A stretch of 64,000 bases of DNA from Escherichia coli (GTDB lineage Bacteria > Pseudomonadota > Gammaproteobacteria > Enterobacterales > Enterobacteriaceae): assembly GCF_024223415.1 (NCBI RefSeq), contig NZ_CP100502.1, one strand, 5' to 3'. Every line of letters starts with the position of its first letter. Positions within the stretch are counted from its first letter, which is position 1. Positions 38,438 to 39,022 of this stretch are shown here, in pieces. The translations under genes were made by a program, and so were the position numbers. The notes under the pieces are model-generated. The model did not search any database and was not told the DNA's origin. It worked only from the letters and a program-made list of their open reading frames with translations.

Positions 38438-39022
38438 CTATGCCTCTTTGTTGTATTTTCCGTCAAGTATGAGCCGGGTACCATCGTAATGCATGATCAG
38501 GGCATCAAGGTACGCCGGTTTGAATTTCTTGCCGAGCCTATCTCTGGCCAGAAATGATAAACAATGATTATGTGTCATTATTACTATGTTCCTTTTATGA
38601 GATTCTCTTGCGATTGATTCAAGCGTCTTATAAAGATCATTATTGCAGTCTGATAAACTGTCCATAACGACGGGTTCTTTACCGGAGAAGAATTTTGCAG
38701 TTTGTATGGTTCTTACCGCATTGCTGGAGTAAATATCATATTCACTGAAGATTGTTGCGAACTTAATACCTTCCTGCTGTGCTTTCTCTGTACCGGTAAT
38801 AGTGATTCCGCTTTTATCCGAATAGCATGGCATATCTGAACGGTCGCAACGTTCTCCATGGCGGAAAAGGAAAATAACGGTGTTATCAGCATTAATTTCT
38901 TTTGCCTGTTCCAGGGTGATATCGGGAAGCGAGCTTTTTGCTTTTGTCACTGCCGCTACCAGGAAAACAGAAAATAAAAGAATGAATGCTGTTTTTGAAT
39001 AAGAAGAACGTGGTTTCATCAT
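38438..39022 (-). CDS. traG: TraG-like exported histidine-phosphatase-superfamily protein (RHGE motif), 194 aa
   Basis: Signal peptide; LFRHGERCDRS matches the RHG catalytic motif of the phosphoglycerate-mutase/histidine-phosphatase fold; positional. Confidence 0.6.
   Translation of the reverse strand: MMKPRSSYSKTAFILLFSVFLVAAVTKAKSSLPDITLEQAKEINADNTVIFLFRHGERCDRSDMPCYSDKSGITITGTEKAQQEGIKFATIFSEYDIYSSNAVRTIQTAKFFSGKEPVVMDSLSDCNNDLYKTLESIARESHKRNIVIMTHNHCLSFLARDRLGKKFKPAYLDALIMHYDGTRLILDGKYNKEA

Follow-up and report, generated by a model that had tools for sequence, protein, structure and literature searches.

traG of an IncI1 plasmid encodes an Ais/PmrG-family histidine phosphatase between two blocks of transfer genes

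Results

The traG locus

The DNA analysed here (the window) is a 64,000-nt stretch of Escherichia coli contig NZ_CP100502.1. The features at the locus, all on the minus strand, are as follows:

37585–38043, minus: traH (flank), encoding a DotD-family lipoprotein (Pfam DotD and R64 annotation)
38044–39081, minus: variable 'traG cassette', made up of the traF–traG spacer, traG and the 394-bp traG–traH spacer
38438–39022, minus: traG coding sequence, an ATG-initiated ORF of 194 aa, assigned to the Ais/PmrG family of histidine phosphatases
38561–38575, minus: T-H-N-H-C motif, residues 150–154, with the second catalytic His (H151) and conserved Cys154
38837–38863, minus: RHGERCDRS motif, residues 54–62, with catalytic Arg54-His55, Arg58 and conserved Cys59
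38939–39022, minus: predicted Sec-type signal peptide or N-terminal anchor, codons 1–28 (hydropathy, −3/−1 rule scan)
39047–39070, minus: GC-rich hairpin plus T-run (terminator-like), just after the traF stop and ending 24 nt before the traG ATG
39082–40284, minus: traF (flank), encoding an outer-membrane beta-barrel, TraF_2/PorV-like (Pfam PF13729, 246 bits)

This ORF corresponds to traG in the R64-type (IncI1) group of conjugative plasmids. Its 585 bp are 100% identical at the nucleotide level to positions 99096–99680 of plasmid R64 (NC_005014.1), in which the gene order is pilV – rci – traE – traF – traG – traH – traI – traJ. The traG of R64 and ColIb-P9 was named as a gene of the IncI1 transfer region by Komano et al. 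2000 (cited in PMC6112013). Nucleotide matches to traG were found in 1373 PLSDB plasmids from Escherichia, Salmonella, Shigella and Klebsiella; the gene was full length in 1359 of these records, and 1343 were typed as conjugative, almost all of the carriers being conjugative with MPF_I mating-pair typing.

The first-pass annotation had regarded a phosphatase as unexpected in a transfer cluster. It is not unexpected in the sense of being new, as the gene is the known traG of R64, for which public records give histidine phosphatase or LPS core heptose(II)-phosphate phosphatase: the R64 record calls the product of the traG-position gene 'histidine phosphatase family protein', and some GenBank records give 'traG: histidine phosphatase domain protein'. 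Public annotation thus already covered the gene together with its fold and probable family, and its dispensability for transfer has been published.

On one side of traG, traH is the first gene of the essential traH-Y block, and is followed by traI (T4SS_TraI) and traJ (TIGR02525 plasmid_TraJ, 585 bits). On the other side, the 400-aa beta-barrel protein TraF (PF13729) also has sub-threshold similarity to the type IX secretion proteins PorV/PorQ, scoring 55.7 bits against the NCBIfam PorV/PorQ family model, under the cutoff of that model. No Pfam match was obtained for TraE (L001 10932–11756). TraE and TraF are dispensable for R64 transfer (traEFG, PMC6112013). TraE, TraF and TraG could form an outer-membrane or LPS-related accessory block.

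Two insertions were seen near these genes. A 1.33-kb IS2 (window 40641–41970, with InsC at 41515–41925 and InsD at 40652–41557) splits traE; homology to R64 breaks at 40640/41971, with an overlap of ~6 bp in R64 coordinates that is consistent with a putative short target-site duplication. If traEFG form one transcript, this IS2 may be polar on traF–traG. The second insertion, of ~2.4 kb (window 43725–46166), is IS66/ISEc8-like, contains a 512-aa ORF (44591–46129) and interrupts R64 homology beside the gene for the shufflon recombinase rci. Downstream of it, the shufflon segments are rearranged relative to R64.

Family, active site and predicted fold

The assignment to the histidine phosphatase superfamily was examined by profile searches, residue conservation and structure prediction. 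TraG matched Pfam His_Phos_1 (PF00300) with 35.1 bits (E = 1.4e-8), above the gathering cutoff of 21.7. A much stronger match, 295.1 bits against a cutoff of 142 (E = 2e-88), was obtained with NF011945 (PRK15416), the NCBIfam subfamily 'LPS core heptose(II)-phosphate phosphatase' (Ais/PmrG), with TraG residues 1–192 covering model positions 4–200, its full length. Against E. coli K-12 Ais, TraG showed 43% identity over 164 aa (E = 2e-51). The NCBIfam PmrG equivalog model NF052369 gave TraG 123.7 bits, under the cutoff of 170; this shortfall is uninformative, because K-12 Ais also falls short (145.8 bits), as does Citrobacter Ais (144.8 bits). NF052369 was therefore dropped as a membership test, since a bona fide Ais (K-12, NC_000913.3) fails it.

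An exhaustive HMMER scan of 1.84 billion cluster representatives returned only 131 relatives at E ≤ 1e-3, of which 13 reached E ≤ 1e-30. Judged by these sequences, the TraG family is small and mostly enterobacterial. Conservation was read from two alignments, one of 13 close homologues (A1) and one of 72 homologues reaching down to ~20% identity (A2). Invariant residues in A1 include R54, H55, R58, C59, D60, T150, H151, H153 and C154, with conservation of at least 90% at R104 and C66. Across the sequences of A2, H55, C59, C66, G72, R104 and C126 do not vary, and R54, E57, R58, D60, T150, H151 and C154 reach 90% or more. The TraG translation, which includes IFLFRHGERCDRSDMPCY, contains the LFRHGERCDRS stretch reported in the first-pass annotation (residues 52–62), and TraG has the residues expected of PF00300: the RHG nucleophile motif and, in the phosphate pocket, R58, R104 and the C-terminal H151. 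The five catalytic positions (R54, H55, R58, R104 and H151) were invariant or nearly so in both the 13 and the 72 homologues. Four conserved cysteines, C59, C66, C126 and C154, are also present.

Searching the PDB by sequence turned up no solved relative. An AF2 model computed from the homologue alignment (pLDDT 95.1, pTM 0.86) served as a Foldseek query. It matched 299 chains of the PDB at E ≤ 1e-3; all of the best 50 had the histidine-phosphatase fold, and the best matches were RosC, Entamoeba phosphoserine phosphatase, SixA, PGAM5 and PhoE, with probability 1.00 for the top ones. The model has the alpha/beta/alpha fold common to dPGM and SixA. In an NJ tree, TraG lay within the enterobacterial Ais family, in a clade of its own with proteins P0004, P0013 and P0020 and apart from chromosomal Ais.

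The superfamily membership claimed in the first-pass annotation is therefore supported by the Pfam match, the conserved catalytic residues and a predicted fold like that of solved histidine phosphatases. By sequence, TraG is a well-founded member of histidine phosphatase branch 1 and, more precisely, appears to be a paralogue of the Ais/PmrG-family LPS-core phosphatases.

Predicted export signal

The TraG N-terminus reads MMKPRSSYSKTAFILLFSVFLVAAVTKA, followed by the putative cleavage site and then KSS. It has a basic n-region (K3, R5, K10) and a 14-residue hydrophobic core (residues 12–25; 11-residue Kyte–Doolittle mean up to 3.06). The T-K-A|K-S site after residue 28 obeys the −3/−1 rule and, in the alignment, falls at the A-W-S|S-N region that Ais-type homologues have there. 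In the AF2 model, residues 8–28 form a lone helix apart from the globular domain. These N-terminal features are of the export type, as had been claimed, and the word 'exported' rests on the hydropathy and −3/−1 heuristics plus knowledge of the family; a cleaved signal and an uncleaved anchor both fit. TraG thus combines Ais/PmrG membership and the conserved cysteines with a periplasmic export signal that is predicted by heuristics.

Lineage distribution and role in conjugation

TraH homologues were found in 3389 plasmid records and TraG homologues in 1440, 68 of the 1440 being unrelated low-identity paralogues. TraG at 95% identity or more was present in 1366 records (1239 + 127), and TraH at 95% or more likewise in 1366. 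The 744 records with a TraH of 60–80% identity showed no corresponding band of TraG. One plasmid of IncK2/Z and one of IncIγ/K1 have traH directly after traF, with no traG between them. The gene is also absent from IncM. As a new result, we find that traG is a low-GC insertion that separates traF from traH and is specific to IncI1.

Published genetics place TraG outside the set of proteins needed for transfer. R64 transfer needs no traEFG (PMC6112013), and Tn-seq of the IncI1 plasmid pESBL scored TraG as 0.79 for non-essential, 0.21 for maintenance and 0.00 for required for transfer (PMC4288162). A component of the type IVB system (IncI/Dot-Icm, MPF_I) is expected to be required for transfer and conserved across MPF_I plasmids; TraG is neither. 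The statement of the first-pass annotation that a phosphatase is encoded within the conjugation operon is thus correct as to position in the tra region and incorrect if taken to mean a part of the machine, as the gene is dispensable and missing from sister lineages. traG is accessory, lineage-specific cargo between two transfer gene blocks, not a type IVB machine component. No paper on TraG activity or on a mutant phenotype was found in the literature, and Hiley 2021 (PMC8004404) contains nothing on traG.

traG as an allelic cassette

The GC content of traG is 40%, compared with 47% for traF and 51–53% for traH, traI and traJ. A second allele was seen in another IncI plasmid (L006, protein P0013), in which traE, traF, traH, traI and traJ are 95.4–99.8% identical in nucleotide sequence to those of the window (dS 0.01–0.16). 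The traG genes of the two plasmids are only 76% identical in nucleotides and 72% in amino acids, with dS 1.05 and dN/dS 0.15. When the cassettes (window 38044–39081, L006 5945–7050) were compared over 50-nt segments, identity fell from 98–100% to ~45–90% precisely between the traF stop and the traH start. traG thus behaves as an allelic cassette, again a new observation. The dN/dS of 0.15 shows that both traG alleles have been kept as working proteins under purifying selection. Maintenance under selection is shown by this ratio at a dS of ~1 and by the equal counts of TraG and TraH at 95% or more.

Within the 394-bp traG–traH spacer (38044–38437), the first ~200 nt are conserved between both cassette alleles. 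The L006 spacer before traH is nearly unalignable with that of the window, and its last ~200 nt before traH resemble the IncK2/Z version, not the R64 version. Searches of the window's 394-bp spacer for Rfam families and consensus promoters gave no hits; the essential traH-Y block is presumably transcribed from a promoter within it. At the traG locus itself, neither an Rfam family nor a PADLOC defence family was found.

The hairpin at the end of traF had an MFE of −19.1 kcal/mol (z = −2.5) in the terminator scan and folding. A GC-rich hairpin right after the traF stop is kept in all four lineages compared, so that traG sits downstream of a pre-existing traF-end hairpin. Because the stem is kept in IncK2/Z and IncIγ/K1, which have no traG, the hairpin belongs to traF and not to traG. 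Upstream of the traG ATG there is no recognisable Shine–Dalgarno sequence; this, together with the hairpin 24 nt upstream, makes the level of traG expression uncertain.

Variants and mobile paralogues

A few database proteins depart from the intact form. Cluster representative P0001 has R54H in the catalytic motif, P0002 has an 18-nt in-frame deletion that removes invariant Cys66, P0003 is truncated at residue 174, and others, such as P0010, diverge in sequence after about residue 150. A probe for the P0002 deletion junction matched none of the complete PLSDB plasmids. A 45-nt 'intact' probe over the deletion site matched 1101 of 1373 records. As the junction probe showed no record with the deletion, the 272 records missed by the 'intact' probe most probably carry SNPs that interrupt the 28-nt megablast word, and the result of that probe is uninformative.

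Ais-like genes also occur on other mobile DNA. The 44% paralogue P0033 was found in more than 800 collection blocks; in the loci fetched (L002–L005, 8001–8582) it lies on plasmid-sized E. coli contigs of 54–116 kb, with an EAL-domain gene upstream, two alpha/beta hydrolase genes and a gene for a 1284-aa SPATE autotransporter downstream, and IS elements nearby. These contigs are consistent with virulence plasmids. The 60% paralogue P0020 lies on an island beside AraC/GrlA-type regulators. The Ais-like family is a recurrent mobile cargo.

Two further loci were reconsidered. An 87% traG copy (P0004, L012 4817–5587) lies outside a tra region, beside GspC/GspH T2SS-like and ricin-lectin/metallophosphatase genes, and was dropped as an independent non-tra context: its nucleotide homology reaches into traF, covering the final 124 nt of that gene, which marks it as a relocated IncI fragment. 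An 86% relative (P0005) in an IncI context with traF uncalled is probably low-quality sequence and was left out.

Discussion

Proposed function of TraG

With moderate confidence, we propose that TraG is a periplasmic Ais/PmrG-type phosphatase that takes a phosphate off the LPS core of its own host, as an accessory protein and not as a part of the conjugation machine. The N-terminal signal would direct Sec export to the periplasmic side of the inner membrane of the plasmid host, where the four conserved cysteines would probably be oxidised to disulfides. From the conserved residues and the fold, His55 in R54-H55-G-E-R58 is predicted to attack a phosphomonoester with the help of R104 and H151. 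By analogy with the family, the substrate may be the phosphate that heptose II carries in the inner core of LPS, or another core phosphate close to it; PmrG is described as dephosphorylating heptose II (PMC8129183, citing Nishino 2006). The 43% identity to Ais leaves room for a shifted substrate. Removal of the phosphate would leave the outer surface of the host less anionic.

No PmrA box was detected upstream of traG by a pattern scan, which returned 4 matches in the 64-kb window against 3.0 expected. Because it lacks a PmrA box and follows traF, traG would supply this LPS edit uncoupled from the host PmrAB stress signal. What benefit the edit would bring is unclear, because deletion of pmrG in the PmrA-constitutive E. 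coli strain WD101 left polymyxin resistance unchanged (PMC8129183).

The first-pass annotation had suggested envelope or recipient-surface substrates. The envelope half of this guess is well-founded, given the Ais/PmrG family; action on the recipient surface is unsupported, because a Sec-type signal reaches only the periplasm of the producing cell.

Alternative readings

Whom an LPS edit would serve can be read in more than one way. One tentative and rather improbable reading is that TraG is host-protective cargo, its edit of the LPS core lowering the binding of cations, cationic peptides and LPS-core phages. The PmrG family is part of the PmrA-controlled programme of LPS charge reduction (PMC8129183), and the paralogues beside the SPATE autotransporter on virulence plasmids and beside the AraC/GrlA-type regulators on an island would suit such a role. 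In Salmonella, IncI1α plasmids cause poor adsorption of the LPS-core phage UAB_Phi87 without mutation of LPS genes (PMC10569123); against this, LPS gels of the IncI1α-bearing variants were unchanged (PMC10569123), although the loss of a single phosphate would be invisible on a gel. The unaltered polymyxin resistance of the WD101 pmrG deletion (PMC8129183) and the lack of a PADLOC defence-family match also weigh against protection, and most E. coli and Salmonella hosts already have a chromosomal ais/pmrG.

We judge it unlikely that TraG tunes conjugation as a surface editor, a change to core phosphate on the donor altering how the PilV tip adhesin views sibling donors. The same editor could cut donor–donor aggregation, act like surface exclusion, or aid the pilus and T4SS in liquid or in the gut. 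IncI PilV adhesins bind defined LPS cores, and PilVA' binds Hep-α(1-3)-Hep-4-phosphate, with the Hep I phosphate mattering (PMC10654706); recognition by PilVA' does not, however, depend on the PmrG target, the phosphate that WaaY adds to Hep II (PMC10654706). The region that contains traG also contains pilV, the shufflon and traEF, and the gene is kept in essentially all IncI1 plasmids. The cassette-like replacement of alleles in a near-identical backbone would also fit selection at the surface. These points have to be set against the dispensability of traG for transfer in both R64 (PMC6112013) and pESBL (PMC4288162), and against the IncI2, IncK, IncIγ/K1 and IncM plasmids, which function without traG whether or not they have the same pilus system.

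It is improbable that the family label misleads and that TraG, as a periplasmic phosphatase, acts on something other than LPS, such as phospho-sugars, nucleotides or a phosphoprotein. Histidine phosphatases vary in substrate, the nearest solved folds acting on flavin phosphate, phosphoserine and phosphohistidine; the identity to Ais is just 43%, and the function of Ais is itself 'putative' in RefSeq. The full-length match to the Ais/PmrG subfamily at twice the cutoff argues against this, as does the fact that TraG has kept every residue that is invariant in the family, among them the four cysteines and those in the segments around the catalytic positions.

That traG is a decaying passenger without current function is very improbable: its dispensability for transfer, its low and foreign-looking GC content, its weak translation-initiation context behind a terminator-like hairpin, and the truncated, frameshifted and R54H variants among database members would fit decay, but the dN/dS of 0.15 over a dS of ~1, the full-length gene in 1359 of 1373 plasmid records, the intact catalytic residues and the finding of the 18-nt deletion allele in none of the complete plasmids searched speak against it.

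Implications

We consider it rather unlikely, on present evidence, that TraG is a plasmid-controlled editor of the LPS inner core whose role lies at the cell surface, outside standard laboratory matings. If it were, removal of core phosphate by TraG would alter the recognition of plasmid-bearing cells by LPS-binding ligands: the PilV thin-pilus adhesins, LPS-core phages such as the Felix-O1-like UAB_Phi87, and cationic peptides. Selection on this surface phenotype would then lie behind the swappable traG cassette, and the adsorption defect caused by IncI1α plasmids in Salmonella would be explained. In E. coli and Salmonella isolated from humans and food animals, IncI1 plasmids are major carriers of ESBL and AmpC genes, and essentially all of them carry traG. 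If TraG does edit the LPS core, carriage of these plasmids could affect phage typing and therapy, tolerance of metals and peptides, and possibly mate recognition.

Comparison with known systems

The closest known counterpart is R64 traG, which is the same gene; the window plasmid differs from R64 in that its traE is split by IS2.

Among E. coli Ais-like paralogues, P0033 and P0020 have 44–60% identity to TraG and are also carried on mobile DNA. Unlike traG, they lie outside transfer regions.

The SixA-type phosphatases (PF00300 branch 1) have a compact alpha/beta fold without large cap insertions, as does TraG, and the TM score between the TraG model and Agrobacterium SixA (2rfl) is 0.62–0.64 when normalised to the target. 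The RHG...R...H catalytic set is common to both, at a sequence identity of just 17–20%. SixA is cytoplasmic and acts on the phosphohistidine of a phosphorelay protein, whereas TraG is cysteine-rich and predicted to be exported.

Ais of E. coli (b2252, labelled 'putative' in RefSeq) and PmrG of Salmonella belong to the same PRK15416 subfamily as TraG, K-12 Ais scoring 392 bits. The 43% identity extends across the whole mature domain, the lengths are similar (194 aa for TraG, 200 aa for Ais/PmrG), and an N-terminal export signal, the RH(G/A)ERCDRS and THNHC motifs and the four cysteines are common to TraG and these proteins. They differ in setting: in K-12, ais adjoins arnB and the arn operon, while traG is plasmid-borne, between traF and traH. 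The arn (pmrHFIJKLM) neighbourhood that characterises Ais/PmrG is lacking at traG, and the PmrA-box scan gave no sign of PmrA/BasR-dependent expression. TraG also groups with plasmid or island paralogues in a clade distinct from chromosomal Ais.
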